64,000 nt of DNA from Folioceros fuciformis (Eukaryota). The position numbers and the translations under genes are program-made. The DNA is taken from the NCBI GenBank assembly GCA_049999805.1, contig JBNGIO010006303.1:139775-203774 (forward strand), written 5' to 3'. This document shows positions 1,689-62,953 of the stretch, in pieces. Each line of letters starts with the position of its first letter. Within the stretch, counting starts at the first letter, position 1. Below the pieces are notes generated by a model. It did no database searches. It saw only the letters and a program-made list of their open reading frames with translations, and was not told the origin of the DNA.

Positions 1689-2174
1689 CCTGTTTGCATC
1701 CACGACCAGAGCACTAGGCACGCGCAGCCAACAATCAGACCTGTTCCCAATCACGGCCAGAACACCAGGGATGCTGTTGCGTAGCCAACAATCAAACCTG
1801 ACCCTCTGAGGCACCTTAGAAGGCAAGTTAGTGAGATCATCAGCCAGGCACAGCGCATCTCGGTCACTAGATCACACGCACTCATAGAGAGTCGATTAGC
1901 AACCTGTAGCCAATGCACAAATGCTAGCAATTCCTCTCGTGCAACTAGCGATCAGACCCTTGCACAGGTTTGCGACCTCATAAACACACAAAATTGCAAA
2001 ACACAAGCAAGGATTACGGACTTCACCGACAGGCAGACCACTTCGAACATCAGCATTGTGGCTCTCACGAGACAAGTGGAGGCGCTTGCGCACAGCGTCG
2101 CCGCACTACATACAGCCATGGAGAAATCTCCTGACCCAAGATCAGGCAATCCCTGGGCCAGGAAGGCTTGCTAG
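1689..2174 (+). pseudogene. Upstream extra ORF (ORF0) of element A, 5'-truncated, one in-frame TAG at 1782-1784
   Basis: Manual translation PDPLRHLRRQVSEIISQAQRISVTRSHALIESRLATCSQC...DQTLAQVCDLINTQ aligns with the 51230-51763(-) ORF of element B. Not present in the ORF track. Confidence 0.75.
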
Positions 2175-2584: not shown

Positions 2585-5500
2585 ATGGCCAATCCAAACC
2601 CTGTTGGCACAGTCAACAACACCACCATCAACAATTTGAAGATCGACTTCAAGGAGAGAGACGGATTCTCTGGATCCCAGTTTGACATCTGGGCCGTGCG
2701 AGTCAAGACAATTCTTCAAGAGAATGGTTTGTGGGATGTTGTGACGGGCACCACCCCAAAGCCTGCAGTTGCAGTGACTGCACCAGTAGCTGATCAGGAG
2801 GCGTGGGCCATGAAGGACCTGCGTGCATTGGTGGTGATCCAGGCAGCCTTGGACAAGTCAATGATGCACTACACGCAGGATGTGGAAACCACAAAAGCAG
2901 CTTGGGATGCTCTCACTCAATCCTACCAAGTGGTGAATGGAGCAGCCAACCTAACGGCCACACGACAGTTTTACAATTGCAAGATGCGAGAATGTGACCC
3001 AATTGAGCAACATGTGAGCAAGTTCCAAACACTCCGTTCAAAGCTCACATCAAGTGGAACTCCCACAACGGAAATGCAAGCAGCCACAACCTTGCTTCTT
3101 TCCCTGCCTAACAGCTACCGGACCTTCGTGAGCAACCACAACACGAGGCTTTGCCAGATAGCTTAGGCCACACCTACAGGACAAGTACCAGCTGTGTCCC
3201 TTGCAGATCTAATCGGAGCTTTTCTCGAGGAAGAGTCCTCCAGACAAGCAAACTGAAGTGGACTCTCCCACAAGGGAGAAGCCTCAAACAGAGTACTCTA
3301 CACAAACAAGGGTACTCGACGGCCTCCACCTTGTCAAACCTAGCAAAGGGACATCAGCAAAAGTAAGAAGCCTGCAGCAAGGACGGGAACCAAGAAGAAA
3401 GGACCGTGCAATTGGTGTTTGATACCTAGACACTGGGAGGCAGACTGTCGGAAGAAGAAGGCGGGTGAACCTCGTCAGGTAGCACCTCCAGAATCAAATG
3501 TGGCTCATCGCAAGGTGAACATGTTGCTAGCCGTCTACATGGTAGCAACCCCTCAATACAGGCATTCCTGGTACGTAGACTCTAGAGCTTCCTCACATGT
3601 CTGTCATACTTTCAAAGCCTTTTCAGAGTATAGGAAGATGCCACGAGGTCAAGTCGTGTTGCTTGGAGATGACCGTGGTCTCCCCATAGCTGGCATAGGC
3701 AAGGTCCCTGTACAGCTCATGAATGGCACCTCAATAGGCCTTATTGATGTTTTACACGTCCCAGCAATGGTTAGGAACCTAGTGTCTGTACATTTGCTAG
3801 ACACCCAGCACATCATGTTTGCTGGAGGGGAGTGTAAGGTGCTAGACCCCTCATTAAAGGGCAAGGTCGTCATTCGAGGCACACCTGTCTATAACCTGTA
3901 CAAATTAGACATCACATACAAGTTAGGTGTTCAAGTTGGAACACATATAGCTAATCTAAGTCAGGAGAAGCTAGCTGAGAGAGAGACCCTGTTGTGGCAC
4001 TATCGGCTTGGACATGCCAACTTTGACAAGCTGAAGTCTATGATAGCGAGCAACACTCTACAAGGAAAAATTCATGATGAGGTTTGTGGACAAATAGTTC
4101 TGCGACGCCTGCATGTTTGGGAAGCAGCATCGCCAACCCTACACTGACAAGAACCCAACAAGGGCCACATAGCTGTTAGAGTTGGTGCATACTAACATTT
4201 GTGGCCCCATGTCAATAGCAACTTTCGGGGGAGCCAAATACATGTTGCTGTTCATAGATAATTGGAGTAGGTACACAATGATCTACCTAATCAAGCAAAA
4301 GAGTGATGCTCTAGGGTGCTTCTAGGACTACGTTACCTTTGCTCAAAGGCAAACTGGTAAGCTTCTGAAGACGTTGCGGAGTGACAATGGTGGGGAATTT
4401 TGCTCAAATGCCTTCAATGACTACTACAGCAGTCTCGAGATTGCCAGGCAGCTGACCACACCCTACACTTCGGCACAAAACCCAATTGCGGAGCTCAGCA
4501 ACAGGCACGTTCAGGAGTCCGCTAAATGAATGATGAAGGTGGTAGGCCTATCCAGAGGCTACTGGGGAGAGGCTGCAGCAACAGCAGTGTACCTCCGAAA
4601 CTGTCTACCCACAAAGGCCTTCACTGGAGCTACACCTTTCGAGCGGTGGACATCTTACAAGCCTCGAATCTCACATCTTCGAATATTTGGTGCACCTGCG
4701 TATGCGCACTTATCCGAAGACCAGAGGGTGAAGCTAGATTACAAGGCTCGTAAGTATGTCTTCATGGGGTATACAGAAGGCATAAAAGGGTACAAACTCT
4801 TTGACCCCATCACTCGCACCACAACCCACTGCCATAGTGTTACCTTTCACGAGCAGCTGTTGCTAGCCCCACCTGAGCTTATTCCAGTAGACACAGCGTC
4901 CTCTAGCTACACAGCATCTGAACCACTAGATGAAATTGAACAGGGCACCTTCCAGTCCCTTAGCTTGCCACCTACACCTGTACCTTCACCTCCTGCTACC
5001 GATCCAGAGGAGGAACCAAGCTCATTCCTATCTAACGATGAGGATGAAGCCCCAAAAGCTAAAGAACCTGAACTCGAAGAGCAGGAACCTGAACAGGAGG
5101 TCCCTACACAAAGCCAGCAGCCACCTGAGCCTTCAGCTCCATAGCTTCGAAGGAGCACAAGGAGACACCTCCTCTCCATGTGAGTGGGTAAATCCACCCT
5201 TGAATGCTTCCTCTTTCTTGGTGCAAGAGGATGTTGATCTAGAAGACTTGGATGAGCCACTCTCTTACAAGGAAGCTATTAGCTCGCCCAAAGCAGCAAA
5301 GTGGATTGAGGGCATCAATTCCGAGTACAAGTCCCTCGTAGACAATGGAACATGGGAGCTTGTGGACTTACCAGCAGACGGAAAACCAGTCACATGCAAA
5401 GGGTCTTCAAGAAGAAGCTAAACGCTGATGGAAGTGTCTCTCGTTACAAAGCAAGACAGGTTGCTAGAGGGTATAGCCAAGTGGAAGGCTTGGACTACAC

Positions 5501-6836
5501 CGAAACATTCTCTCTAGTGGGACGTTCCACATCCGTATGGTCCCTGTTTGCTATAACAGCACAACATGATTATGCAATGGAGCATATGGATGTGAAATTT
5601 GCTTTTCTCAATGGTACCTTGAAGGAGACCATCTACATGCGTCAACCGGAGGGCTTCGAAGCCCCTAAACACCCAAACAAAGTGTGTAAGCTCATCAAAA
5701 CTATATATGGGCTTAAGCAATCACCTCGAGCATGGTACAATAGAATAGATACTTATCTAAGGAAGTCAGGAGTCGTGCAAAGCGAGGCTGATTCCAATGT
5801 GTACCTACTGCGAGAGCAAGAGGGTGTAGTGTTTCTTGCCCTCTATGTGGATGATGCAGTGTTGATTGCTAGCAGTCCCAAGCTTATGTCAAAGGTCAAG
5901 GAAATACTTACCTCAGAATTTTCAATGACTGACCCAAGCAAGCTCACATGGTTCTTGGGCATTCAAATAGTCCAGGATCTGAATACACACACTGTGGCAA
6001 TCCATCAAGCACAGCATATTAGTCACATTCTAGCTAGATTTAGAATGGTTGACTGCAAACCTGCACCAACACCAATGGCTGCAGGGGAGAAACTTAGCTT
6101 AGAGCAATCTCCAAAAACAGAGGAAGAAAGGATGCAAATGGACAAAGGCCCCTATAGATCAGCTGTTTGCACTTTAATCTACTGTAGAAATTGGACCCTA
6201 CCAGACTTGTCACATGTAGTGGGAGTCACTTCTCAATTCTTGACATGCTATGGAGCACCCCACTGGACAGCTGTGCAGCGGATTATGCGGTATCTAAAGG
6301 GTACCCCTAGACTTAGACTAATCTATAAGAAGAGGCCAGAAGCACTCACACTTACCTGCTTCTATGATGCTGATTGGGCTTCGGACTCGGACACCCGCAA
6401 GTCAGTTTCAACAAACTGCTTCCTTCTGGGCTCCAATGAGTATGATTCAAATGTCATCTCTTGGTACAGTAAGAAACAACAAGTTGTTGCATTGTCCTCA
6501 ACCGAGGCTGAATATGCAGCAACCGCAACAGCAGCACAGAACATTGTGCAAGTCAGGGAGTTCCTTGCATCACTAGGAGAAGAGCAAGCTGCACCCACAT
6601 TGCTGCTATGTGATAATCAATCAGCTATAGCACTTGCTCATAACCCCATAATGCACGCTAGAACCAAGCACATAGAAATAAAGCATCATTTTATAAGGCA
6701 GGTCATACTTAATGCACAGGCAAACCTGCAGTATGTCCCCACAAATCAGAATGTTGCAGATGTCCTCACTAAAGCCCTAGCTAAGGAAAGGCACTATAGA
6801 TTCTGCAAGGCTATGGGACTAGCAGAATGTCCCTAA
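2585..6836 (+). pseudogene. Copia gag-pol polyprotein of element A, broken by stops and frameshifts
   Basis: gag (FDIWAVRVKTILQENGLW), CNWC..HWEADC knuckle, WYVDS protease site, LWHYRLGH, integrase LRSDNGGEF, RT (YKARQVARG, MDVKFAFLNG, LYVDD), RNase H (DADWA, SSTEAEY, ARTKHIEIKHHFIR). Confidence 0.95.
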
Positions 6837-7062
6837 GTCCTACACCACCCATAGACAACAGAGTGCATGCAAAATTGTTCGTGTAGCTCCTTAAGGACTT
6901 GAGTCTTCACTTGAATCTTCGAGTGGGCATTGCCGTGGTGCATCTACACCAAGGCTCTACAAGGAATGGAGAACATTAGCTCATGGCAGCAAGGGAACAC
7001 AACAAGCAGTGGGAGCAATTCTCACCAACACCTAGCTTACCATAACGTATGATAAGGCGGCC

Positions 7063-7332
7063 CTAGTCTGTGAATTCTGAGCCTGCATACATGAATCTGT
7101 CCATACAGTTGGGGAGCATTCTGTAGGGCGCATCAGGCACAAGGCAAGGGAATCCCTGCAGCGACCCTAATCGAGCGTGAGCTGCCTCCAATTCTGCTTC
7201 AGCAAAACAAAACTTGGCAAGTTCTGCACTCAGTGAATGTGGCCTTTGGCACATGCTCAGTACTAGCGCAAGCACAATACCGATGGCTACACCAAGCAGC
7301 GCAACAATCAAGCTCATAGTTGTGCAATCCAT
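7063..7332 (-). CDS. Antisense small ORF (89 aa from ATG 7332) with hydrophobic N-terminus in the 3' region of element A; the stop is probably premature
   Basis: Homologous to 46487-46804 (ELEAA...VPxAPxRxLPxCxDxFxYAGxEFT). Similarity continues past the TAG (GRLIIRYGK vs GRQFIKYSK). Confidence 0.75.
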   Translation of the reverse strand: MDCTTMSLIVALLGVAIGIVLALVLSMCQRPHSLSAELAKFCFAEAELEAAHARLGSLQGFPCLVPDAPYRMLPNCMDRFMYAGSEFTD

Positions 7333-7417: not shown

Positions 7418-7560
7418 TATAGAAATATAAAATTAGGAGTCAATTTTATATTAAATAGCCAGCCTTAGGTTTATTTATTAAATTAGGCAAAAACGTTAAA
7501 GGTATGAAATAGTATGCCTTTTCATACTGTCGTGATCGAACCCTAAGCGACGTGTACACT
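7418..7560 (+). repeat. Partial 3' LTR of element A, starting 5'-TATAG (end approximate)
   Basis: Directly follows the PPT. Shares tttattta..aattaggcaaaaacgtta and gtcgtga blocks with the LTR of element B. Confidence 0.7.
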
Positions 7561-7842
7561 CACGTGAACAGTTGCACCTCCACGGACCTCCACGCACCTG
7601 CCTCAAGGGCAGCCTAGTCACGGCAATCTCAACTTTGTTTTCCTCTACGCCTACCGATTAGCCTGCTTAACTCATATCTACTTCCGCTGGCCTAGCACAG
7701 ATAGTTAGTAACCGTTTCCCAAGTATCCACAGTGCCCTAAAAAGCAAGTCAGCAGGTTAGCTTTTCGTTGTTTCCATAACAAAAACTCTGTTGAAACCCT
7801 AATTGCTTACCTGTTCACCTGTCTAATAATTGATAATAATTT

Positions 7843-9535: not shown

Positions 9536-9539
9536 GCGC

Positions 9540-42465: not shown

Positions 42466-42662
42466 TGTATCACTCACAAATTCACTATGGAGAAGAAGAA
42501 GTGAGTAGAGACATCTTAAAAGGATGTCATTGTGAGCAGGTTAGACTATGATATATTGTTTTGAATTTCAATACAAAACTTGGGGGCAGAGAAAAAGAGT
42601 AGGGAGAATTCCTTAGTACTATTTAAAATCAAGGATTGATTCTATAGATCTTTTCTAGTATT

Positions 42663-44024
42663 ATGGCGTTATACAAGGAGGCTTCCATAAAAATCTCAAG
42701 AAAATGGGGAAAGTTGATGGGAATTCAACGACAACTTTGGAATTTAATTTATAATTTTATGAGTTATAATTTTATGCACTTAATCTATGTCTCGCTTTTC
42801 TTGTGCTTAGTTATGTTCACTTTTATTATTGAACATGATATCAATACTTTAAAAAGTAATGAAGCCATTGATCCTACTCAAAAGCTTCTTCCCGATAAGC
42901 AACATATTCCATATGTAGGGAGGTTGCCACATATGCAAATATTTTATCCACCAGCTCTTGAACCAAAGTTGTCAATTGTATCGACAACAGCAGCAAGTTT
43001 AGATGTATTGTTGCCTTGGATCTTTTACCATAAGGCAATTGGTGTAAGCAATTTCTATTTGTTTGTTGAAGGAAATACGGCATCAGAAAAGAGTATAATT
43101 CTATTACAAAATATACCAGGTGTGAAGGCAATAAAGCGCGACAAGAAGTTAGAACGGAAACAAAAAGAAAGTCGAATATGGAATGAGACTTGGCTCTCTC
43201 CTTTCTTACACAAGCCTTGCAATTATGAGTTATTTGTGAAGCAAACCTTTAATATGGAGATGGGAATTGTGTTGGCCAAGGAGGCTGGAATGGATTGGAT
43301 TATGCATCTAGATAGCGATGAATTGATATACCCAATAGATTCACCGGATAATAGAATTACAACCATATTGGCTAGAGTTCCTTCAAATGTCGAACAAGTT
43401 ATTTTCCACAATGAAGAAGCTGCTATAGAGAGAGATAATATTACAGACTCTTTTATTGAGGTCACCTTGTTCAAAAGGAATAAAGCGATGATGCCATCAG
43501 ATAGCTATCGTAAATTTCGATCTGCGACCTCTAAACACAGGTATTATTTCCTAACATATATAAATGGTAAGGCCGCAGCTCGAATTCAAAGTCACTTGCG
43601 CCCTAATGGGGCTCATAGGTGGGCTAGTTACTCAAGATCTTCTATCCTAAAGAGTCAGTACTTAGAAGAGTCAATTGTTTTGCACTACTCTTATACCAAA
43701 TTTTCAGATCTAATTACTAGAAAGAATCGTTGTCATTGTAAACTCGATTTGAAGACTTTGAAGAGATGTATCATGCTTCCATTTGATCGCGAGGCTTATG
43801 TCATTGCTGGCTCAAATGTCACAGAAGCCCAAATACGAACATGGTACCAATCAAATGTGGTGTGGTCAACAAGAGAAGATGTGCTTGAATTGTTGAAGTT
43901 GGGAATAATGCATCGGATCAATAGTCCACAAATAATTATTCAAGGTTTAAAGGAAGCTGGGGTGTTTAGAGATGCCATAGAAAGGGGTTCTCAAAACACC
44001 AAAGTCGAGAAGCTACATATGTAG
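42663..44024 (+). CDS. KOB1: KOBITO1/ELD1/ABI8-like glycosyltransferase-like type II membrane protein, intronless, 453 aa
   Basis: N-terminal TM helix; LPWIFYHKAIGVSNFYLFVEG, SRIWNETWL, KPCNYELFVKQ, NMEMGIVLAKEAGMDWIMHLDSDELIYP, FLTYINGKAAARIQSHLRPNGAHRW. A divergent homologue, not necessarily the orthologue. Confidence 0.92.
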   Translation: MALYKEASIKISRKWGKLMGIQRQLWNLIYNFMSYNFMHLIYVSLFLCLVMFTFIIEHDINTLKSNEAIDPTQKLLPDKQHIPYVGRLPHMQIFYPPALEPKLSIVSTTAASLDVLLPWIFYHKAIGVSNFYLFVEGNTASEKSIILLQNIPGVKAIKRDKKLERKQKESRIWNETWLSPFLHKPCNYELFVKQTFNMEMGIVLAKEAGMDWIMHLDSDELIYPIDSPDNRITTILARVPSNVEQVIFHNEEAAIERDNITDSFIEVTLFKRNKAMMPSDSYRKFRSATSKHRYYFLTYINGKAAARIQSHLRPNGAHRWASYSRSSILKSQYLEESIVLHYSYTKFSDLITRKNRCHCKLDLKTLKRCIMLPFDREAYVIAGSNVTEAQIRTWYQSNVVWSTREDVLELLKLGIMHRINSPQIIIQGLKEAGVFRDAIERGSQNTKVEKLHM

Positions 44025-45186: not shown

Positions 45187-45649
45187 CCACATCTAATACA
45201 AGATGCAAATGAGATGGGTTATCATAGTGCAGAGGCAATGTCCATGGACCCGGGGCATGGAAGGGTTGCCTCATTGTAGTGTTGGGCTCACTAAATCAAT
45301 TCATAGCTTTCTTTCTAGGCTTTTATGGAAGCTGCATGTTACCTTAAACTGGCTGTTATCAGTAACATATTACCATAAGCAGTTTTGCAATTTGTAGGCT
45401 ACTACACGATGCCGTAGCTATTACCNNNNNNNNNNNNNNNNNNNNNNNNNNNNNNNNNNNNNNNNNNNNNNNNNNNNNNNNNNNNNNNNNNNNNNNNNNN
45501 NNNNNNNNNNNNNNNNNNNNNNNNNCCTCCGCCTATTTGAAATGACTAGGAGATGAGCGTCCTACCTCCACCCATTTGAAATGAGTACGAGATGAGCATC
45601 CGAGTTTATGTTTTTTTGTCTCTTTAAAGACGAAACACTTCATTATCAA

Positions 45650-45832
45650 TACATTGCCCAATAATATGTGCATAATAAGACACATTTCCCAATAACATGT
45701 GCACAATAAAGACACATTTCCCANNNNNNNNNNAAGACACATTTCCCAATAACATGTGCACAATAAAGACACATTTCCCAATAACATGTGCACAATAAAG
45801 ACGCATTTCCCAATAACATGTGCACAATAAAG
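45650..45832. repeat. 32-bp minisatellite, at least 5 copies, spanning a 10-N gap
   Basis: aaagacacatttcccaataacatgtgcacaat repeated (e.g. 45734, 45766). Confidence 0.95.
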
Positions 45833-46100
45833 AAGAGATAATGTTATGACCAAGTGATTTGTGGGTATTTATGCATCGAGTTTCATGTAGTATCATAGTT
45901 GGGAGCCCTCCATCTGGCTCTTTGAGTATTTGGCAGTAGCATTATGTCAATCATAGCAACCCAGTGATTGGGGGAGTTGATTTGGGTGCTGGCCAGGTGG
46001 CACTTAGATAAGACCCCTACACTGTAGACAGGCTCTCAGACATTCAAAGGTACTGACTTCTTCAAACATGCACCCTTTGTATGTGGACATCGATTGTCCA

Positions 46101-46416
46101 TAAAGAACTAGTTGTAGGATTGACAGATGCTGAGAATCAAGAAGGCACAAGAGAAAAAAAACTGATTAATTATTATCAGGACCGTATGGCCTTATAAAGG
46201 GCAGAGGCCAAGGCACAAGAAAAAAAAAGTGATTAATTATTATCAGGACCGTATGGCCTTATAAAGGGCAGAGGCCTCGGTTTGTGGTGCCCCTAAAATG
46301 TGTCGTTCTGATTCAGGTCACGACCTTACGTTGCACCCCTAATAATCTAGCGTTTTGCTTAATTAAATAAAGGATGATTAATAATTACTGGATAAATAAT
46401 CCTAACTCTATCTATA
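46101..46416 (-). repeat. 3' LTR of element B (316 bp, with a ~67-bp internal tandem duplication)
   Basis: Matches 52037-52285; aaggcacaag...aagggcagaggcc is present twice. Confidence 0.95.
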
Positions 46417-46486
46417 CTCCCTTTTAGCCAAGATTTATTCCAAGAGTTGTTGCAGTACACATTGTACTTGCGACAGAATTTCTCCG

Positions 46487-46804
46487 ATGGCGGAGTTGCT
46501 GGAGATTGTGTTGATGTTGGCCATCCTTGCGATGTTGATGCGATGCTGTCATGTTTTCCAGCTCTATAATGGATTCTCCAAGCTGCTGACGTTGGAGAAC
46601 GAGCTGGAGGCAGCTCAACCAAAAAAATGTGTTCCAGGTGCTCCATTCCGCTTTCTTCCATACTGTCTTGACAAGTTCGTGTACGCTGGCTGCGAATTCA
46701 CCAAGGATGGTAGGCAGTTCATAAAATATAGTAAGTTTGTTGTGAGATTACTCCCAATGCTTGCCTTGTTCCGTGGTGTGCAGCTGACCAGTTGTGTTGC
46801 TTGA
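46487..46804 (+). CDS. Antisense small ORF (105 aa, hydrophobic N-terminus) in the 3' region of element B
   Basis: Intact ATG to TGA; homologous to 7063-7332(-) with many synonymous codon differences. Confidence 0.8.
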   Translation: MAELLEIVLMLAILAMLMRCCHVFQLYNGFSKLLTLENELEAAQPKKCVPGAPFRFLPYCLDKFVYAGCEFTKDGRQFIKYSKFVVRLLPMLALFRGVQLTSCVA

Positions 46805-46905
46805 CGCAGAACCTTGGTGGCAGTGCACCTCCAAGATGCCGATCAGGCAATTTCAAGCTCCTGTCTGCAATGTTAGATTTCCAAGCTAGATGGTAGGTGC
46901 TAGGA

Positions 46906-49900
46906 CTAAGCATCTGGATTCTTCACTAATCCCATGGCGGCTGAGAGTTTCTCATGCTTCTCCCAAGGTAGTGCTTTAGTGAGCATGTCATCTAGGTTCT
47001 CATGAGTAGAGACATATTGGAGAGTGTCTTGTCCCTCTGCAATGACCTGCCTCATGAAACGATGCTTAATTTCTATGTGCTTTGTGCGAGCATGCAGCAT
47101 TGGGCTTTGTGATAGGGCTATGGCTGACTGATTGTCACTTAGGAGGACTGTTGGTTGTGTCTAGGGTTCTCCAAGAGATGCCATTAGTTCCCTTCCATGA
47201 ATTATGTCATGTGCTGCTGTTGTGGTTGCAATGTACTCCGCTTCCGTGGAGGACAAAGCCACCACCTGTTGCTTCTTTGAATGCCATGCTATGATTGTAG
47301 AATCTCCTGCATCCCTTCCTAGCATTAGGCAATGAGCAGAGATTGACTTCCTACTATCTATATTCGCTGCCCAGTCAGCATCACAGTAGTAGGTTAGTAG
47401 CAGGCTCTTCGGTCTTTGCTTGTATAGCAGTCCAAGGTTGGATGTGCCCACCAGGTATTGGAAGATCTATTGGACAACATTCCAATGAGCAGTACCATAG
47501 TTGGAGAGAAACTGTGAGGTCACTCCCACTGAATGTGCAAGATCGGGTCTGGTCCAGTTCCTGAAGTAGATGCAAACTCCCACTGCAGGCCTGTATGGCA
47601 CCTTCTCCATCTCAAGTCTTTCGGCTTACGTCTTAGGACATTGTTCTAGAGTCAACTTCTCACCTGCCACCATTGGTGTTGATGCAGGCTTGGCATCCTG
47701 GAGCCTAAAACGTGCAAGCACTTGTGCTACAAACTGTGCTTGGTGTATGAAGATGATGTGCCTAGACAAGTTCTGGTGGATGTGGATTCCAAGAAAGAAT
47801 GCTAATTGACCAAGGTCTGTCATGGAGAACTCGGCTGTGAGGAATCCTTTTACTTTTGCCATATGTTGCGGGCTACTTGCTATGATAATTGCATCATCTA
47901 CGTACAGGGCAAGGTAGACAACGCCATTGCTATCATGCAACTTCTAGACATTGGAGTCTGCTTGACTTTGCTCAAATCCACACTTTTTCAGGTATGTATC
48001 TATCCTTTTATACCACGCTTGTGGTGACTGCTTGAGTCCATAGATAGTTTTCACTAATCTACATACCTTTTGTGGATGCGCAGGGTCTACATGGCCTTCT
48101 GGTTGCTTCATGAAGATTGTCTCTTTTAGATTTCCATTGAGGAAAGCAGTCTTTACATCCATGTGCTGAAGCATATAGTCATGTTGAGCTGCAATTGCTA
48201 GAAGAGCTCGAATTGAAGTAGCACGTACCACAGGTGAGAAGGTCTATGTGTAGTCAAGACCTTCCACCTGACTGTAGCCACGAGCAACCAGTCTAGCTTT
48301 AAATCTGCCAATAGTACCATCCGCTCCCAATTTTCAGTATTGTCTTGGACTGAAACTTCTTGTGTTGTTTCTCCATCAAGGGTTTCATCATCTGGAAAAT
48401 CAGATGGCTTCTCATTGAAGTCAATCTCTACAGGTTGTGTAGACTGAGTAGGGTTTAGGGTTGAAACACTTGTGTGTTGAGAGGAAGTGGACTCTAGTAG
48501 GGATACTTCAGAGTCTTGACCGTTTTCAGATATCTGCTGAATAACTTGGTCTAGCAAACCTCAACTTGTGGATGGATTGAGCAAAAGCTGCTCGTTGAAG
48601 ATGACACTGCGTGCATGGATGGTAGACCGGGTGTTTGGGTCAAAAAGCTTGTAACCCTTAATCCCTTCTATGTATCCTACAAAGACATACTTCTTGGCTT
48701 TGTAATCTAACTTGACACGTTGTTTTCCACTCAGGTGTGCATAGGCTAGGGAACCAAAGATCCTCAAATAATTTATGCGGGGTCTATGACTGGTCCAACG
48801 TTGAAAAGGAGTGGCTCCAGCATAAGCAGAGGTAGGGACTCTATTCTTGATGTAGACAGCAGTAGCAATTACTTATCCCCAATAGGATCTTGGTAACCCT
48901 GCAAGTTTTAGCATCGCCTTGGCTTGTTCCTGCAAATGCTTGTTGGTTAGCTCAACCAAAGGGTTCTACGAGGAAGTGTATGGCACTGTAAATTGTCGTG
49001 CTATTCCCTGGTCCTCGCAGTAAGCCTTAAACTCGTTGGAGGTATACTCCCCTCCATTGTCACTGCGTAGAGCCTTGAGTTGCTCCCCAGTTTGACGCTG
49101 AGCAAAAGTGACGAACTCCTGGAAGCAGCCAAGGGTCTCACTCTTTTGTTTGATCAAGTAGATTATGGTGTACCTGCTCCAGTCATCTATGAAAGAAAGG
49201 AAGTACATGGATCCACCAAGAGAAGGGGTGGACATGGGTCCACAAAGATCCAAATGCACAAGCTCCAGAAGTTTAGTGGCTCTGGTGGGGTTTTTATCCT
49301 TGTAGGGAAGGCAGTGGTGCTTCCCGAAGATGCATGCTTCATTGTTGGTTGCAGGATTGAAGCATGAAGTTTTCCTGATACAGGGAGTTGCTAGCCACCA
49401 TACTCTTGAGCTTGTCAAAGTTCACATGCCCTAGCTGGCAATGCCACAACATAGTCTCCTCCTTCTTCTTAATGTCTTGGGTGACATTGACATGTGCAGT
49501 GGAGGGTTTTTGACTAAGCTTTGATGTGATGTTCAAGTGGTACAGGTCATGAAGAGGTGTGCCCTTAGCTAAGACCTTGTTCTTATACAGTGGATCAGTG
49601 ATGACCCAGTGAAGGCCAAAGAAGGATACCTCTAAGACATTTTGTGTTGTAAGCTTACAAACATAAACAAGGTTCTTCTTCATTGAAGGGACATGTAGTA
49701 CATCTAACAAGTGAAGGGTCATTCTGTCTGATAGAAGGACAGGCACTGTGCCTATGCCCTCTATGTGCAGCCCACTGTCATCGCCTAGTAAGACAAATTG
49801 ACCATGTGAAACTGTCCTATACTCAAAGAAGGAATTCTTGGAATGGCAAATATGTGCAAATGCACCTGAATCTATAAACCAGGCGTGTTTGTGTGACACT

Positions 49901-50855
49901 GTGGACACCATGCATACAGCTAGGATTGTGTTGCCCTTATGCTGTACAATTTTTGATTCTACTGGAGTCGTCCTTCTCGGCTCTCCAGACTTTTTCTTTC
50001 TACAGTCTGCCTCCCAGTGGCCGAGGATTAGGCACCAATTGTAGGGCCCCTTCTTCTTTGTAGAAGTTGTTGGTCGCTTCTTATTGTTGTTATTGTTGTT
50101 TTGCCAAGGCTGACGAGGTGGTTGTCTCTTAGGGCCCCTAGTTGCGTAGAGCGCCATGTTGGAGGATTCTCCCCTGAGGGAGGTACCACTCCTGCTTGCT
50201 TTGCGTGTGGATTCTTCCTCGAGAAGACATCCAATCACCTCTGAGAGAGTAACAGCGGGGACCTGACCTGCTGCAACAGCTTGAGCTATGTTTCGAAGGG
50301 AAGCATTTTTATTGCATACAAAAGTTCTGTAACTTCCTGGTAGAGAGAGAAGCAGAGCCACTACTGCTTGCATTTCAGTTGTTTTTGTCCCGCTGGAGGA
50401 TAGCCTGGATCTCAAGGTCCTGAACCTTATCACATGCTGCTCAACTGAATCAGTCTCCCTCATCTTGCATTATAAAAGTCTCTTGTGGCACTCGCCATGG
50501 AGGTACCGTTTGTCACTTGATAAACTTGGACAAGAGAATCCCATGCAGCTTTAGTAGATTCTGCGTCGTGGGTATGATACATCATACTTCTATCTAAAGC
50601 AAACTTTATGACACCAATAGCTCTCAAGTCTAATTTAACCCATGCATCTATATCAGCTTGTGGGGAGCCTAGAAGAGGCCTAGGCGATGCACCCGTGACT
50701 ACATCCCATAAATCATGCTCTTTTAAAATAGTTTGAACTCTTAAAGACCAAATGTCAAATTGAGAGCCCGTGAACCTATCTCTCTCCTTGAAATCAATTT
50801 TTAGGTTATGCACGGTGGTGTTGTGAGTCACGGTTTGGGGTTGCTGATGAGCCAT
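46906..50855 (-). pseudogene. Copia gag-pol of element B, with many stops/frameshifts and a deletion at the integrase-RT junction (~48340)
   Basis: KIDFKERDRFTGSQFDIW, GHWEADCRKKK, WFIDSGA, LRSDNGGEY, MDVKTAFLNG, LYVDD, DADWA, ARTKHIEIKH. RT starts abruptly at KLGADGTIGRFKARL without the EPxSYKEA..TWELV block seen in element A. Confidence 0.95.
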
Positions 50856-51229
50856 GTTTGAGATCACTATGTGTAATGCTCTGGTGTCATGTGCTACAGA
50901 GAATGCATGTGCTAGGTGCGCTAGCTGTGCGGCTTGAAGGTTGAAGGTGGCTAAGGTGGAGCTACCTTGCGATTTTGGACTTTGTGGAGAAAAGGACTTG
51001 GATTGAGGTCAAGAGGATCTACTGGGAGATGCACGCCTCTTCCGACACCATGGCCACGACCACGACCTCTGCCGCATTGGCTCCTTCCTCCTCTTGCTCC
51101 AGAGCCATGTGATATCCACCAGGCATGCTACAGCGGCAGCCGCACCTCCTCTTCTAGAGCTAAGAGCTGTTGGACGTGCTTTGGGAAGATCTCCTCCATG
51201 GCTTGAATCATCTTGTCCAAGTCTGTCCT

Positions 51230-51808
51230 CTAGTCTTTGGGTTTTTCGTGAGCCGGGGCTGTCGTGGATGGCGCAGGTCTTGCCGGCACTAGGGTTGCGC
51301 CGCGTGGGAGCAGGTGTGGCTGCTGCTGCTTCTTCACGAAATGTTGATCCAGGTCTGACTCTTGTGCAAGTGCAAAGACTGGCCCAGATAGGCTACTGAT
51401 CAAATGTAAGAGGCAGTTGATGTGCTTGGTTTGTGCTTCAACTTTGTGAGTCAGGTGAGCGACTTGCTGCCTGGTTTGGACAAGCTGCGACTTCACGAGA
51501 TCATAAACTTCTGTGGAGACATGGTCTGGCGGACGGAAGCATGCATTCAGATTGCAGGTGTGGCAGGTTGCTGAACGGGCAGCCAGCGGGTGTGAGAGAG
51601 AAATGTCTTGTGCATTTGCTATCTCTTGTCTAATCGGCCTGCGCAGGTTCAGTAGGGGATTTGGCTGTGGATAGGGTCTGTGCAAGGGTGTGCACTGTGT
51701 GTGTGCAGGGACACGGACTGGATTGGACGCAAAGAAATTGATGCGTTTGTGTTGTGACTCCACGGTTTCCCCTGTCTGCCTGCGAAAGGATCTGAATGCT
51801 GGTTTCTC
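51230..51808 (-). pseudogene. Upstream extra ORF (ORF0) of element B, sense to gag; true start uncertain, may extend to the ATG at 52020
   Basis: 177-aa track ORF is open upstream to a TAG at ~51810. CHTC motif followed by a heptad-like helix; homologous to 1689-2174. Confidence 0.72.
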
Positions 51809-52036
51809 CTACTTCTTGGTCTCGGCATAGCGCTGTATGATCATGTGTAGTAATGCTCTATAGCAGCGGCGAGGAATACATCTGCCATGCTACCAAAACG
51901 GGTGAGGGCTGCTTTGAGACCAGAAACTACTACTATGAATTTATCATAGAAGAGATTGTTAATGAAATTCGTGCTCTGGGAGGCCTCACAAATTTCTGGT
52001 GGCACGGCAGGATCCATTATGCTAGCTTTGATACCA

Positions 52037-52285
52037 TAAAGAACTAGTTGTAGGATCGACAGATGTTGAGAATCAAGAAGGCACAAGAGAAAAAAAACTA
52101 ATTAATTATTGTTAGGGCCATATGGCCTTATAAAGGGTAGAGGCCTCGGTTTGTGGTGCCCCTAAAATGTGTCGTTTTGATTCAGGTCACGACCTTACGT
52201 CGCACCCCTAATAATTTAGCGTTTCGCTTAATTAAATAAAGTCTGATTAATAAATACTGGATAAATAATCCTAGCTCTATCTATA
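52037..52285 (-). repeat. 5' LTR of element B (249 bp)
   Basis: Minus strand reads TATAGATAG...GTTCTTTA, immediately followed by the PBS. Confidence 0.95.
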
Positions 52286-52648
52286 GTCCAGCAGGGTTTG
52301 TTGATAGGAGGTCTTGTTGTGTTCGGACATTCCCACAAAATAGCCCTCATCTACAAGTAGGTTGAAGGTATGTAACACCTTCGTGGATGGTCCAACTAGT
52401 GGGTCTATTTTCGGTCCTGGTGGGAAGTTACAAAGTTGCCCGACTCTCCATCACTAACGTCGATGACAACGCTAGAGAAAAGTGTGTGGTAGACCATGTT
52501 TTGCCTCTGTTCTCCAATCCTCTCAGCATATACATGGATGTGGAGCCCATTAGTGTGTGCGGTAGACCATGTTTTGCCTCCGTTCTTCAATCCTCTCAGC
52601 ATATACATGGATGTGGAGCCCATTAGAGTGTGCGGTAGACCATGTTTT

Positions 52649-55600
52649 TGTAGGGTTATTAAAGCCCAATGTGCTTAGACTAATGTGTTTAGTCTAAGAT
52701 TAGTGTCTGGTTAAGTATCATTAGCTTAGATTAGCTTAAGCTAATCTATAGGAAGCGTCTTGCGCAGCTTGCTTCCTATGCGCTTCTTGTGAAGCTTTCT
52801 AGGGAGCTCTTCTAGAGGGTATAAATACCCCCTTGAGCTCCTTTGCATATTGAGACCTTTTGTGAGAGTGTAACCTCTCTTTCTCCTCTCCTCCTTGCCT
52901 CCTCTTGTCCTCTCTTTCACCATGCTCTTCTAGCGATCCTTCAAGTGGTATCTGAGCTTGGTTGTGGAGCTTGGATTGTGGAGCAAGGATGATAGGCTCG
53001 GGTTGCTGCGGAAAAGGTGCACAAGTGGGCTTCGGAGTGAGCACGCTGCTGGGTGCAAGGATCTCAGCGTAGAGAAGGAGCCGAAGCCGGGGACCCGGAC
53101 ATGAACACAGAGGGCGCAAGGGCACCAGCTCTGCGCGCGGGGATGAGCAGGCCCCAGCCCCCGGGGCTACGCAGACGCCGAGAGCAAGGGTGTGCACGCC
53201 GAACTAACCCCGACCGCGGAAGTCAGGATCCCGATCAGACGCCGAGAGCAAGGGTGTGCGCGCCGAACTAACCCCGACCGCAGAAGTCAGGATCCCGATC
53301 AGACGACGAGAGACATTCCAGTTGTGAGCGACCAAGGCCCAAGTTGTGGAAGTTTGATTCGGAACATGTTGTGAGGGTAACTTTTAGAATCTACATTGCA
53401 TTCCGACTGTTTTCTATCTAGCCTTTAGCTTCATTTGCATCGATTTTGAAACATGGCATCCTCAGAAAATGTCATGTTCAATATCGAGAAGTTAGATGGT
53501 ACTAACTTCCCGTTCTGGAAAGAACAAGTGTATAATGTTCTAGTACAAAAGAAGCAGATCAAGCTCATAAAGCTGCTAGGAGTGAAACCCGTTAGCATGA
53601 CTCAAGATGAGTGGCAGGACCTAGATGAGCTTGCTAGGTCTACCATCATGCTAACATTGTCGAAGTCGGTCTACTTCAACGTGAAACTAGCTAACGTCCA
53701 CAAGGTACGAGCTATGGCAAAAGTTGTGTGACTTGTACGAGAAGCAAAGTGCGGCTTCTTAGGTGTATTGGTTGAAACGACTGGTGGACTTGAAGATGAA
53801 GGAAGGGACGAGGATGTCTGATCATCTGAATGAGTTTAATGCCATTTTCAGCCAGCTCTCATCTCAAGGTATCTCGTTCCCAGATTCCAAGAGAGGTATG
53901 TTTCTGTTGCTCACATTACTAGAGAGCTGAGACACCTTTCGTACAGCTTTGAGTAATTCCGCTCCTGCCAATGGTCTTACTGTTGTAAATGTAGAAGGTA
54001 GCTTGATAACAAAGGAGATGAACAGGAAGAATATGGAACCTTCGAAAGGTTCCAATGCCCTCATGGTGAGAGGAAGGTCCACTTCAAAGGGGAAGGACAA
54101 GGAGTGAAGTCGTTCCCGTAGTAAGTCTCGTAGTCGTAACAATGTTGAGTGTTACCATTGTCACAAGAAGGGACACATCAGAAGGGACTGCGAGAAGTTC
54201 AAGAAGGACAAAGGCAAAGAGAAGAAGCAGAGCGACAACAAGGCAAGTCTGAGTGTCAAGTGTGACGAGGTGAACTCTGTTGATGATGGAGATGTTCTTA
54301 CTTCTTCTTCCTTTGATTCTGCACAACTAACAGCCGTAGAGAGTCACTTATTCTCTAATTGGATAATTGACTTTGGAGCATCTTTCCATGTTACTCCGCA
54401 TAGGGAGTGGTTTAGCACATATGATGCTACCAGGAAAGGATGTGTTCGGCTTGGAAATAACTACGCATGCGAGATTGCAGGCGTTGGTGATGTGTAGCTG
54501 AAGTTCGACAATGGATCTTCATTCGTACTGAAGGATGTTAGGCATGTTCCGAAGTTGACCAAAAGCATGATTAGCGCAGGGCAGTTGGATGACGCTGGCT
54601 ACCACTGTTTGTTTGGAGATCGTTCTTGGAAGATCTCCAAAGGTTCTCTTGTGTTAGCTCGTGGATCGAAGTGTAGCACTTTGTACTCACTTCAGGTAAC
54701 CACTGTCCAGGATCATGTGATTTGTGTAACGGAACAGCCAAGTGTTTCCTTGTGGCGTAGTCGGTTAGGACATATGTCTCAAAAGGGACTGAAGATCCTA
54801 TCTCGTTTTGGTTACGTCCCTGCTTTTGACTTCTCCGATTTCTCCGTGTGTGAGCACTGTTTGTATGGGAAATAGACGAAGTCACCACATGGAGCAAGAG
54901 GTAAACACAGAAGTAAACCTCTTGAGTTGGTTCACAGTAACGTTTGTGGACTTATGCCCACAGTATCGTTAGGCGGTGCATCCTATTTTGTCACTTTCAT
55001 TGATGACTTCTCGTGCAAGGTGTGGGTTTATCCTTTGAGGAAACAGGATGATGTTCTGACAGTGTTTTAGAAATTCGTCACACTTGTGGAGAATCAGTCT
55101 GGCCTTCGGCTAAAGTGTCTGAGGACAGACAATGGGGGAGAGTATGTCTCGATGGCTTTCCAGTCATTCTGTGATTCCAAGGGAATCAAGAGAGAACTGA
55201 CTGCGCCGTATACTCCTCCCGAGAATGGTGTGGCCGAACGGATGAACAGGATCATCCAGGAGAAGATGCGTAGTTTGTTGTCAAACTTTGGATTGCCTAA
55301 CGGATTTTGGGGAGAAGCAGTGGTTATTGTGGTGCATCTTGTTAACAGATCTCCTAATAGGATTGTGGATAAGCAAGTTCCAGAAGAGATGTGGTCTGGG
55401 AAGAAGCCGTCTTACAAGCATCTACAAGTGTTTGGCTGTGAGGCATACTACCATGTTCTGAAGGAGTTTTAGGACAAGTTGGCTCCTAAGTCAAGAAAAT
55501 GTATTTTTCTTGGCTATGGTGAATTTGGTGAGATGGGATACTGTCTGTGGGATCTAGAGGCCAAGAGGATGGTTCGCAGCAATGATGTGTTCTTCAATGA

Positions 55601-57741
55601 GACCAAGATGCACAAGAAGCCTACTCCAACAGTGGAGGTGCGACGAGTGGTCTTTCAAGAAGATGGATTTAACCGTCTCGCACAGGTTGAACGTTGTGAT
55701 GTGCAGGAATAAGTGCCTCCACTTGTACAAGAGGAGAAAGTGCAACCAGCTCTGGTCGAGGCGCTAGTGCTTCGTAGGTCAGGAAGGATCTCACGTCCTC
55801 CTGACAGGTATGTTGCATCTCTTGATTATGTCATGCTGACGGATTGTGGGGAGCCCTGTTATTACCAAGAGGCCATGTCAGTGACTGACAAGGACAAGTG
55901 GGAGAAGGCGATGCAGTCGCAGATGGATTCGCTCCACAAGAACCAAACTTGAGAGTTGGTTCCGTTGCCTAAGGGCAAGAAGGCGTTGCCATGCAAATGG
56001 GTGTATAAGATGAAGGACATACCCCATTATGGCAAACCCAAGTGTAAGACACAATTGGTTGCTAAAGGTTTTAAGCAACAGCAAGGTATTGACTTTGATG
56101 AGATTTTCTCGCCAGTTGTCAAAATGACCACCTTGCGATGTGTCCTTGGTCTGGTTGCGAGGCACGACATGGAACTTATCCAGATGGATGTGAAGTCAGC
56201 ATTTCTGCATGGTGATCTCCAGGAAGAGGTATACATGCAGCAATCAGAGGGTTTCATTGAGAAGGGCAAAGAAAGTCTAGTGTGCAGGTTAAAGAAGAGC
56301 CTTTATGGTTTGAAGCAGGCACCCAGGGAGTGGTATTTCAAATTCCACTCGTTTACGCTTTCTCAAGGCTACAAACGTAGCGATGAGGATCATTGCCTCT
56401 ATACGAAGCAAGCTAAGGATGGAAGCTTGCTCATTCTAGTTCTATATGAGGATGATATGCTAATTGCTGGGCGTAACAGTGATGAGATTTCAGCGTTGAA
56501 GTCAAAGTTGAATGGTCGCTTTAACATGACAGACTTGGGAGAGGCAAGCCATATTCTTGGCATGCGTATTCGTCGAGACAGACAGAAGCATTTGCTTTAC
56601 TTGTCTCAGAATGAATACATTAACAAGATGCTTCAACGTTTCAATATGGAGAAGGGGAAGGTATTGAGTACTTCGTTGCCTCCATATGTAAAGCTTTCGA
56701 GCAAAGATTGCCCAAGCTCTGCGGAAGACAAAGCTGAAATGGAGAAGGTTCCATACTCATCAGCTGTGGGGAGTTTGATGTATGCAATGATTGCCACGCG
56801 TCCTGACATTGCGTTTGCAATGGGAGTGGTTAGCAGGTTTATGTCAAACCCTGGCAGCAAGCATTGGGAGGCAGTGAAAGGAGTTATGAGGTACTTGAAT
56901 GGTACAAAAGCTTTGTGCATATGTTTTGGTAGTGAAGATGCATCTGTCGTGGGATATATGGATGCTGATTATGTAGGGGATATGGACAAAAGGAGGTCCA
57001 CATCCGGTTATGTCTTCATGTGCACCGGAGGGACAGTCTCATGGCAATCGCGTTTGCAATCGTGCATAACGCTATCTACCACAAAGGCCGAGTATGTTGC
57101 AGCGACTGAGGCATGCAAGGAAGCCATGTGGCTTGCTCGTTTAGTGGGAGATTTGAGGATCAAGGTTGAGCTGCCAGTGTTGCATTGTGATAGCCAGAGT
57201 GCTATCCAATTGGCGAAGAATCCAGTGTTTCATGCGAAGACCAAACATGTGGAAGTGAAGTATCACTTCATTCGAGAGGTGTTGGAAGACAAGAGGGTAC
57301 AACTTGTCAAAGTTCACACCAGTCAGAATCCTACAGATGTTCTTACCAAGGGGCTCTCTTCGGAGCAATTCGCACAAGCTCGGACACTCATGGGCATGAG
57401 GTAGACCACTCTCCTATGAAGGTAAATTGGCCTTTAAGGGGGAGGTTGTAGGGTTATTAAAGCCCAATGTGCTTAGACTAATGTGTTTAGTCTAAGATTA
57501 GTGTCTGGTTAAGTATCATTAGCTTAGATTAGCTTAAGCTAATCTATAGGAAGCTTCTTGCACAGCTTGCTTCCTATGCGCTTCTTGTGAAGCTTCCCAG
57601 AGAGCTCTTCTAGAGGGTATAAATACCCCCTTAAGCACCCTTGCATATTGAGATCTTTTATGAGAGTGTGACCTCTCTTTCTCCTCTCCTCCTTGCCTCC
57701 TCTTCTCCTCTCCTTCACTATGCTCCTCTAGCGATCCTTCA
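52649..57741 (+). mobile_element. Full-length Ty1/copia element C with canonical TG..CA LTRs; 5-bp TSD GTTTT
   Basis: 295-bp LTRs at 52649-52943 and 57447-57741. PBS TGGTATCTGAGC at 52946-52957. PPT AAGGGGGAGG at 57436-57445. GTTTT at 52644-52648 and 57742-57746. A 64-bp leader duplication at 53172-53300. Confidence 0.98.
53453..57404 (+). pseudogene. Copia gag-pol of element C, with several stops and frameshifts
   Basis: IEKLDGTNFPFWK, CYHCHKKGHIRRDC, WIIDFGASFH, LRTDNGGEY, MDVKSAFLHG, LYEDD (catalytic motif altered), KTKHVEVKYHFIRE. Confidence 0.96.
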
Positions 57742-60953: not shown

Positions 60954-62953
60954 GGTGCTCCCGATTCCCGTGACGATCACTCACTCACGCGCAGCTGACC
61001 GCAGTAGACGGGATTGCGTATCTCTAGAGGCGGTTTGGTTTGGGAATTCGATCCCGCCAGTCGCCAGTGGCACGACAGAGAAGTGAGTGTCTTGTCTGTC
61101 TGTAATTGAAAGGAATAAGCGACATCGTCCTGGTCGAGGCATCCAGGCGAGTGCCTGTGAAGAATGTCCCTCTTCCCCGTCTCTCTTATCTCGGGTGGTG
61201 GTTCACCAAGATACCGCTCAGCTCACTTTCGAGTCAAAGCACTACGCGAAGTGTAGTGGCTGGGGCAGCGGGGAAAGTGGGGCATGAGGGCTGGAATGTA
61301 TACGGGATTCGATCCCGAGACCGTCCATTCGGAGTCGGCGACCCAGACCACCCGGCCAAACAAAGTTAAACTTCACATTATAGCGTTGCGGAACCGCGTT
61401 CCTCGCACGCTCAGACAGGAGGTTCATGGAGGCAGTTGGTTGCAGGCAGGCGCCTGTACCGAACTCCAGGGCGGTACCCGCCTTCTCCAACTACCTGGTC
61501 GACTCCTCTCCCGGCTCCTCTACTCCTCGCAACGCTGCAGCGCGCCTCCAATCTTTGCCTCGCCCCCCTCGCCTGCTTCTGCTGTCGCTGTGGCTGCCGG
61601 ATACGTCTCGCAGCGCCCTCGCCCTGACACGCACACGCGGCTGCAACCCGCAGTGCATCGGAACAGCCGCAGTCACGCGAGAGGGAAGCGCGTGCGGGAA
61701 GCTGGCTGTGCCACAGCGCCAGCTTCCAGTCTCTCTCATCTTCTTGCCCGTTGCACTGTCGTCCCCCCGGCNNNNNNNNNNNNNNNNNNNNNNNNNNNNN
61801 NNNNNNNNNNNNNNNNNNNNNNNNNNNNNNNNNNNNNNNNNNNNNNNNNNNNNNNNNNNNNNNNNNNNNNNTCCCCCCGGCGCCCCCGCCCGTCCCCGAT
61901 GCTTGCTTCAATCCTGGCTGCACTTTCTTGATTCTTCGGAGAAGGGAAATGGAGACGTGCGGCAGTACGAGGCTGACGTTGGACTTCCCGGAGGCTGAGG
62001 CCGCGGCGTGGCAATGAGGAAGGCGGGGGTAGGAGCGGGAGCGGAAGGGGGAGCAGGATCAGGATCAGGATCAGGCAGAAGTGCGGAGGAAAGATCCAGG
62101 CTGATGAGAGTCTCATGGCGCAGCGGACCGTAGAGGTTCTTGGAGGAGCTGCGCGATTCCGGACCGGAGGATGTAGCTGCTGCATGTCCGGAGTTTGAGC
62201 TTGCATGCAACCAGGCCTGCGTTCTCGGGAATTTACCATCGATCTGGAGAGGAGGAAGCGAAGGCGGCCCCGGGGGATCGATCGGGCTTAGGCCTGGGAG
62301 AGAGAGTCGGGCCGGCCCAGGCCGGGACCGGGTGCATACGATTTCATCCCGTTGTGGTGGGAGGGAAAGCCAGGCAGGCCTAGAGGGGGCATCGCCAGTA
62401 TGTTCTCCAGAGGGTAAGGCTTGAGCAAATTAGGTCAGGGGAGAGGTCGGCGGATCCTGCCTAGTTAGCTAGGCTAGGCTAGGCTGCTACATTCCATTGA
62501 AAGGCTGCTGCTGCTTCTTCTTCTTGTAGTATGGATGCGGTAGTGGTCAGGCTCTGCTGCTGCTTCCGCTTCCGCTTCTGCTACTGCTACTGCTACTGAA
62601 TTGGTGCTTTGATAGGACTAGGAGTTAGAGAGGATTGTTACTAGTAGGGATGCGTCGTTGGTGGTCGTGTAGTAGTCGTGAATGCATACGGGCTACTGGG
62701 GACGTAATTGTTGATATTGTCCAATCCAGATTCCTCCGAGGTCATGACATGGTGGTGATTGCAATATGTAACTTGTGCTACTACTACTACAGTTTGGTGA
62801 TGTACAGTAACGTTGTCCGTTGGTGCAGTCGTATTAGTGTGTGGAGAGTAGTAGTAGGAGAGGTTGCAATTGGTAAGCTAGCTTCAAGTTGTAACCATGT
62901 GGATTGCCGCAGGACAGGATTGACGGGGTGGGACTGGGATGGGATTGTGAAGG

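Follow-up and report, generated by a model that had tools for sequence, protein, structure and literature searches.

Two related Ty1/copia insertions

The stretch of DNA analysed here, hereafter the window, comprises 64,000 nucleotides (nt) of Folioceros fuciformis (GenBank assembly GCA_049999805.1, contig JBNGIO010006303.1, positions 139,775 to 203,774 of the forward strand). It holds two related long terminal repeat (LTR) retrotransposons of the Ty1/copia type, element B and its relative, element A, and in both of them gag-pol is accompanied by two further conserved blocks: a sense frame upstream of gag, here called ORF0 (ORF, open reading frame), and a frame that runs antisense between pol and the polypurine tract (PPT). 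As a preliminary description of this DNA had proposed, A lies about 40 kb from B, is clearly diverged from it in DNA and has homologues of both extra frames at matching relative positions (BLASTP E 7e-11 for ORF0 and 5e-11 for the antisense frame, with tblastn in agreement). The coordinates of all features are collected in Table 1.

Element B is a genuine Ty1/copia element by its domain order, its copia-type reverse transcriptase (RT) and gag, and its LTRs, target site duplication (TSD), primer binding site (PBS) and PPT. From 5′ to 3′ its Pfam domains are Retrotran_gag_2 (with DUF4219), Pol_BBD and gag_pre-integrs, rve, SH3_retrovirus and RVT_2. The flanking 5-bp TSD is perfect and therefore fixes the termini as TATAGA...CTTTA, which confirms the TA-ended LTRs first noted for this element; with its 5′-TA...TA-3′ ends B falls in the non-TGCA ‘TATA’ class of copia elements. 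Its LTRs differ in length (316 vs 249 nt) because the 3′ LTR alone carries a 67-nt internal tandem duplication (46142-46209 / 46210-46276), which includes the TATA-like CTTTATAAGG; the pair is identical at 233 of 249 positions (93.6%), a Kimura two-parameter (K2P) distance of 0.068. The complement of the PBS ends in CCA, as in the 3′ end of a complete mature tRNA. The PBS is putatively of the tRNA-Met type. The initial view that B is complete holds for its structure, with LTR pair, TSD, PBS and PPT all at exact coordinates, but the element is dead in coding: against P0001, an intact database polyprotein of 1117 amino acids (aa) from a Logan assembly, the region from protease (PR) to RNase H (RH) has 8 in-frame stops and 2 frame changes, and gag has one additional frame change near 50465.

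Element A encodes the same Pfam families as B. It is truncated at about 1690, where another copia element (198-1690) adjoins it with its LTR, and because of this cut its 5′ LTR, its PBS and the starts of its ORF0 and leader are missing from the window. The first ~80 nt of the LTR, which are AT-rich, align between A and B. The two elements are 63.6% identical in protein over RT-RH and 57.7% over gag, with pol DNA at ~65%. The RT of P0001 is 74% identical to that of B and 66% to that of A, and all other matches to the A RT are at most 46% identical (2765 proteins with E <= 1e-30 among 8000 scored candidates), the nearest matches that carry a name reaching at most 41%. Judged by these identities, A, B and P0001 form a small, poorly sampled lineage.

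An antisense frame downstream of pol

The antisense ORF of B and its homologue in A are 31% identical over 93 aa by BLASTP and 33% over 106 aa by tblastn. Their products share ELEAA and a core, VPxAPxRxLPxCxDxFxYAGxEFT, their N-termini read MAELL and MDCTTM, and both begin with a hydrophobic segment, for which a hydropathy scale, the sole basis of this call, gives KD19 values of 2.08 in B (residues 5-23) and 2.99 in A (residues 8-26). The antisense ORF that had been described downstream of pol is thus real in the sense that it is homologous and conserved frame-specifically in both elements, but it is whole in neither of them. In A it is closed by a premature TAG beyond which the homology continues, and in B the frame shifts relative to A near 46750, the shifted frame ending in a stop at 46785-46787; past this frame change the stops of A (6978-6976) and B fall within one codon of each other. 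Taken together, the premature TAG with homology beyond it, the frame change and the near-coincident stops indicate that the ancestral product was probably about 100-120 aa long and that both copies are damaged.

A frame upstream of gag

The leader of B, from the 5′ LTR to the gag ATG (50855), measures 1181 nt, an unusual length. Close to its start lies a small upstream ORF (uORF) whose TGA overlaps the ATG of the ORF0 frame (51844-51842) as ATGA, an arrangement known from termination-reinitiation coupling; the corresponding part of A lies beyond its cut, which makes a comparison of the uORF impossible. The 192 open codons of ORF0 form a stop-to-stop frame (51808..51230) with no internal ATG, an ATG standing 11 codons upstream of the in-frame TAG. 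The block conserved with A (about 51368-51712 in B) is helical and coiled-coil-like, and the two products are 31% identical over 108 aa; in the core of the block DNA identity is 42%, yet amino-acid similarity persists. What remains of the extra ORF originally placed upstream of gag is therefore a homologous sense block in A and B, but the open frame of B has no start and the homology in A crosses a stop.

An origin of ORF0 as an extension of gag was considered and rejected, since several stops and a spacer of roughly 375-410 nt without frame-specific conservation separate the two in both elements; moreover, the reading frame of gag extends no further than 37-51 codons beyond its conserved ATG in the upstream direction. 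As a separate observation, the ORF0 frame in both A (2190-2330) and B (50951-51127) runs past stops into an RG/RGG-rich stretch and then a similar NPLxNP / DPLxLNP motif, a similarity that is weak and not frame-specific (49 vs 48).

Table 1. Features of elements A and B (positions in the window; +, forward strand; -, reverse strand).
Feature	Position	Strand	Basis and remarks
Element A, relative of B	about 1690-7710	+	blastn/tblastn of B against the window
ORF0 homologue of A	1743..2174	+	frame 1785-2174 open; homology from 1743 across TAG 1782-1784
gag-pol of A	2585..6836	+	gag ATG 2585, pol stop 6834-6836; at least 4 in-frame stops and at least 3 frame changes
Antisense ORF homologue of A	6976..7332	-	ATG 7332, 85 nt from the LTR; premature TAG 7065-7063; homology on to TAA 6978-6976
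3′ LTR of A	7418..7710	+	start TATAGA read right after PPT AAGTGGGAG; end ...TTAGTA at about 7710 placed by alignment to the B LTR, without TSD check as the 5′ LTR lies outside the window
Element B, Ty1/copia insertion	46101-52285	-	LTR pair, TSD, PBS, PPT
TSD TGGAC, 5′ side of B	52286..52290	-	sequence read
5′ LTR of B, 249 nt	52285..52037	-	repeat pair; boundaries read; begins TATAGA, ends CTTTA
PBS of B, TGGTATCAAAGC	52025..52036	-	immediately 3′ of the 5′ LTR; starts with TGG
uORF of B, 58 codons	51841..52017	-	ATG 52017, just after the PBS; TGA 51843-51841
ORF0 frame of B	51230..51844	-	ATG 51844-51842, in-frame TAG 51811-51809, then 192 open codons; stop 51232-51230
ORF0-gag spacer of B	50856..51229	-	RG-rich in the ORF0 frame
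gag-pol of B (gag, PR, integrase, SH3-like, RT, RH)	46906..50855	-	gag ATG at 50855; at least 8 in-frame stops and 3 frame changes
Antisense ORF of B	46487..46804	+	105 codons from ATG; ATG 70 nt inside from the 3′ LTR
PPT of B, AAAAGGGAG	46417..46425	-	immediately 5′ of the 3′ LTR
3′ LTR of B, 316 nt	46416..46101	-	repeat pair; boundaries read
TSD TGGAC, 3′ side of B	46096..46100	-	identical 5-mer, perfect

Tests for coding

Frame lengths were compared with those of 1000 dinucleotide shuffles. The length of the antisense open frame was reached in 9/1000 shuffles for B and 34/1000 for A, while the sense frames of the same pol-PPT spacer were not significant (131/1000 and 470/1000); the ORF0 frame of B, with 27/1000, is marginal. 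For frame specificity, the two elements were aligned in translation for each of 18 pairings of frames, of which the proposed one scored 144 in the antisense region and 121 in ORF0, against 79 for the best other pairing in both regions and 41/56 and 31/48 for the remaining two frame pairs of the same strand and offset. Codon shuffles never matched the observed score (0/500 per region), and neutral simulations with the same per-site DNA difference and no indels reached it in 0/1000 cases for the antisense frame and 1/1000 for ORF0. In the ungapped core of the antisense frame, differences at the three codon positions number 12/7/22 (chi-square p = 0.014). The proportion of synonymous differences (pS) is 0.80-0.88 everywhere, gag and RT included; that of nonsynonymous differences (pN) is 0.41 and 0.44 in the extra frames vs 0.16-0.30 in gag-pol, giving a pN/pS of about 0.5 from a protein-guided, and hence biased, alignment.

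As an external control we used unrelated metagenome copia loci from an RT scan (all at most 41% identical), 63 of 80 being usable. An antisense ATG-initiated ORF of at least 89 codons within 600 nt after pol was present in 3/63 of these, one of at least 105 codons in 1/63, and such an ORF with an N-terminal hydrophobic segment in 0/63; across all 80 loci tblastn detected neither of the two extra frames and nothing similar to the leader. RNA folding stability of the conserved blocks was unremarkable (z -1.1 to +0.7, 40 shuffles each).

The breaks in the extra frames, one to a few in each, are in line with the 8 stops per about 1100 pol codons of B. A three-gene architecture, as had been put forward for this lineage, is not to be found intact: all four accessory frames are damaged or startless, gag-pol is broken in both elements, and there is no intact copy.

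Interpretation and alternatives

We somewhat favour a reading in which the ancestors of the B/A lineage would have had two lineage-specific coding regions besides gag-pol, both of them since lost by decay. The antisense ORF probably is or was a gene; for ORF0 the same is only slightly to be preferred over the contrary, and that both frames were genes we regard as an even call. On this reading B would be an old, dead insertion of a low-copy land-plant Ty1/copia family with TA...TA LTR ends. ORF0, about 200 codons in B, would have been translated from the genomic RNA ahead of gag, and the overlapping ATGA may have coupled its translation to that of the uORF. A promoter within the first ~80 nt of the 3′ LTR, which are AT-rich, may have driven inward transcription of the antisense ORF, and the predicted N-terminal hydrophobic helix of the antisense product could have served as a signal peptide or a signal anchor, with a cysteine-containing domain behind it. 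Such a product would be a small accessory protein of membranes or the secretory pathway that acted in trans on the life cycle of the element, and in A and B both accessory frames would have been lost through the same decay that broke gag-pol.

A number of observations weigh against this reading. A and B are the only two copies available and both have decayed, and the promoter, transcript, translation and function of the extra frames are all inferred from sequence. The ratio of nonsynonymous to synonymous substitution rates (dN/dS) is not estimable for the A/B pair because synonymous sites are saturated, so that of the protein-level constraint suggested in the preliminary description the frame-specific conservation, as for coding, stands but the check by dN/dS does not. 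Neither copy has an intact ATG-to-stop ORF0, the length of this frame in A is within chance (252/1000 shuffles), the ungapped ORF0 core differs at 23/17/33 sites per codon position with only p = 0.068, and in the 3′ half of the leader no reading frame is preferred (49 for that of ORF0 vs 48 on the reverse complement). In the antisense region, conservation goes on past the putative stop without 3-periodicity (46809-46905 in B, 6837-6960 in A; differences 17/13/20). The extra frames are without a homologue in every database searched, the 4.9-kb contig of P0001 has no called antisense homologue in the search of 1.84 billion proteins, and no RNA run among the sequencing runs matches the stretch, one run guessed to be RNA (X4) having given 3 short pieces, each <90% alike. 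Finally, an AlphaFold2 model built from a two-sequence alignment was uninformative (pLDDT 46.6).

The main rival to a coding interpretation is that the conserved blocks are cis-acting nucleic-acid elements, serving packaging or dimerisation in the leader and plus-strand priming, polyadenylation or an antisense regulatory RNA at the 3′ end, with frames that are incidental and favoured by a T/G-poor sense strand. We think this unlikely but deserving of serious attention. It would account for the lack of codon periodicity past the antisense stop and in a short stretch conserved directly after the pol stop of A and B, for an ORF0 open frame without an in-frame ATG in both copies, and for a leader frame in A no longer than expected, the longest frame of shuffled leaders already averaging about 113-117 codons; non-coding antisense transcripts are, besides, known in retrotransposons (PMC7264820). 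Constraint on nucleotides should not, however, prefer one frame, and the proposed frames score 121 and 144 vs 31-56 for the others of the same strand and offset. Differences in the antisense core are least at codon position 2, more numerous at position 1 and most numerous at position 3, no excess of RNA folding stability accompanies the blocks, and the ORF0 core has kept similarity in amino acids at a DNA identity as low as 42%, all of which speaks against this rival. The non-periodic conservation past the antisense stop does place part of the constraint on the 3′ spacer at the nucleic-acid level, and the stretch between the pol stop and the antisense end may be a nucleic-acid element or the 3′ untranslated region of an antisense transcript.

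A narrower alternative, which we consider distinctly unlikely, would keep only the antisense ORF as a gene and regard ORF0 as a fast-evolving non-coding or degenerate leader, or as the relic of an older N-terminal extension of gag. All tests are indeed stronger for the antisense ORF than for ORF0, which is startless in both copies, and gag stands at an equal frame offset from ORF0 in both elements, as would fit a formerly linked frame. Against this, the ORF0 score of 121 compares with at most 79 for any other pairing and was reached by a single neutral simulation in 1000, and the stops, the spacer without frame-specific conservation and the closed frame ahead of the gag ATG argue in both elements against a former link to gag.

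If both ORFs were genes, as our preferred reading has it, the known coding repertoire of the Pseudoviridae would be widened, and the lineage would offer a compact system for studying the roles of antisense genes in retroelements. Accessory genes are what distinguishes retroviruses from simple LTR retrotransposons, and to our knowledge nearly all plant examples belong to gypsy lineages or are the sense env-like ORF of SIRE copia elements, none of them with an established function. Carried to its furthest point, the reading would make of this lineage a retrovirus-like, multi-gene copia, with an ORF0 coupled to a uORF and an independently transcribed, HBZ-like antisense gene for a small cysteine-containing membrane or secretory accessory protein, which would be the first antisense protein gene in Ty1/copia; we hold this full version to be improbable. 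HBZ itself is a nuclear bZIP protein and not a small membrane protein. Were such a layout real, the antisense protein, which would be without homologues in current databases, might serve specifically as an accessory factor, for instance by helping particles to traffic, the element to spread between cells or host silencing to be escaped. If the frames are incidental, the locus is just another decayed TA-ended copia insertion.

Comparison with known elements

The original contrast with typical copia elements that encode only gag-pol was drawn too sharply. Extra ORFs (eORFs) are widespread in plant LTR elements, and ones of at least 250 codons are known from 582 Ty1/copia elements in 45 groups, in all four classes of position and orientation, according to Neumann et al. 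(2019, PMC6317226); what stands of the contrast is that a full-text literature search, which left supplementary tables uncovered, turned up no account of an antisense ORF in copia. It might be supposed that this family, extra ORFs included, has its entry already, for example in REXdb or Repbase or among those eORF groups, and TATA-ended copia elements have certainly been described (PMC9804982). We consider this very improbable: the 250-codon cut-off of that survey (PMC6317226) would have let both ORF0 and the antisense ORF escape, no protein or profile match was found in any library, the literature search was blank for copia antisense ORFs, and beyond A, B and P0001 the RT matches among the 8000 scored candidates end at 46% identity. 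Extra genes of about 100-200 codons may, by the same cut-off, be systematically overlooked.

The TA-ended LTRs, by contrast with the extra ORFs, are no novelty, TA...TA ends being an established copia type. Arabidopsis, grape and lotus all have catalogued copia elements with TATA-ended LTRs, which are short (229 bp on average in the lotus class; PMC9804982, citing Ou & Jiang 2018). The lotus elements resemble B in their TA/TA ends, short inverted repeat and short LTRs (229 bp vs 249/316 bp in B); they are, however, angiosperm elements for which the accessible part of that paper mentions no accessory ORFs, and the likeness is one of LTR features (PMC9804982). Half-molecule tRNA-Met PBSs are given for the copia lineages Bryco and Osser (Neumann et al. 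2019, PMC6317226), unlike the PBS of B, which starts with TGG and is of the complete-tRNA type.

Antisense ORFs between pol and the 3′ LTR, the position they have in A and B, are found in gypsy elements, with gene23 of Grande (maize), RIRE2 (rice), ORF3/4 of Retand (Silene) and PvRetro13 (Phaseolus) among the examples (PMC7264820; PMC11728184). These ‘aORF-3R’ families have a Tat/Retand backbone, long 3′ regions and larger, partly nuclear proteins, whereas B is of the copia type, its spacer measures just ~0.5 kb, and the product, for which a membrane helix is predicted, would have about 100-120 aa; by Pfam, Transposase_28 included, the antisense products show no similarity to the gypsy proteins. 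Among copia elements, SIRE likewise has an additional ORF between pol and the 3′ LTR, the characteristic env-like eORF-3′F, whose products often have transmembrane segments (PMC6317226; PMC7264820). That ORF is sense and long, whereas the frame conserved in A and B is short and antisense and the sense frames of their spacers lie within shuffles (131/1000 and 470/1000).

On the 5′ side, accessory ORFs occur in Ogre (ORF1) and Tekay (5′aORF), some elements carrying both 5′ and 3′ aORFs (PMC11728184), and the Drosophila MDG1 group of gypsy has small 5′ ORFs, sORF1 and sORF2, of which sORF2 is described as a small transmembrane protein (PMC11952523). Like ORF0, these are sense ORFs between PBS and gag on the genomic RNA; unlike it, they all belong to Ty3/gypsy elements, and no homology was detected. 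The antisense products recall sORF2 and FAST-like proteins in being short with one predicted transmembrane helix, a functional analogy only; they differ in being 3′ and antisense and in having neither the N-myristoylation motif MGxxxS/T nor a polybasic tract after the helix, as these features are given in the same source (PMC11952523). For an antisense promoter in or near the 3′ LTR there is precedent in HBZ of human T-cell leukaemia virus type 1 (HTLV-1) and in the copia LTRs of AtRE1 and Mdoryco1-1, all of which are transcribed into the element (PMC7264820). Together with Grande gene23 these offer an analogy, and no more, for the promoter proposed in A and B.

Searches for homologues, transcripts and further copies

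Neither extra protein had been recognised at the outset, and this was borne out by Pfam, profile and word-based searches and by scans of viral and metagenome contigs. Pfam, Transposase_28 included, gave no family for either antisense product at E <= 1 beyond sub-threshold noise and none for ORF0. Word-based protein searches yielded 0/41 candidates for the antisense product of A and 0/261 for ORF0 of B, a profile of both antisense proteins had 0 matches among 1,835,955,588 representatives, and the ESM Atlas held no usable antisense match and ORF0 matches only at 0.77 or below. Scans with degenerate antisense patterns produced 84 matches in viral contigs and 595 in metagenome contigs, with 0 relatives among either. 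These blanks are weak, because the transposable-element proteins of the window itself are unrepresented in the protein collection: 0/6 window ORFs, two gag-pol control ORFs among the six, were present in a collection of 15 billion proteins. As to capture from the host, nothing homologous turned up beyond the elements themselves, in databases that are poor for this host. Within the window, the ORF0 and antisense queries had no tblastn match in the other copia fragments, of which there are at least four.

In the DNA sequencing runs X1 and X2 the ORF0 and antisense regions of B are at a depth of about 7-14, roughly that of the contigs matching B exactly, and no further copy of either region appears at >=80% identity, a contig depth not being a copy number. 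The conserved parts of pol attract many other copia contigs in these runs. One X1/X2 contig is about 83-94% alike in parts of gag and the leader and does not join B again until the PBS; it points to a closer relative whose leader has diverged.

Over 46000-52400, the differences between the window and a third run from the same sample, X3, are nearly all C>T (278 places) or G>A (198 places), the pattern expected of a bisulfite-converted library; in the X3 contigs every listed plus-strand C of 51945-52044 reads T.

Other features of the window

The fragments of other copia families lie at 198-1690, 7840-12000, 17698-20455 and 55953-57404, with RT about 37% identical to that of A. The first of these, which adjoins the cut 5′ side of A, is possibly a nested insertion, and the second contains a 29-nt tandem array (9510-9980) within an open frame and an ORF with a zf-RVT (LINE-type) domain at 10610-11812. 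Rfam and tRNA scans of the window gave nothing. Candidate host genes are a 600-codon DUF247 ORF (‘plant protein’) at 13511-15313, a glycosyltransferase-like ORF at 42648-44024 (Glyco_tranf_2_4 / GT92, weak) and an ORF with an RRM_1 domain at 62951-63742; the DUF247 ORF marks the host as a land plant. Assembly gaps appear as eight stretches of N, 10-400 nt long, and B is flanked by short tandem repeats at 45646-45844 (31-32-nt units), 52482-52627 (two units of 73 nt) and 53172-53299 (two units of 64 nt).

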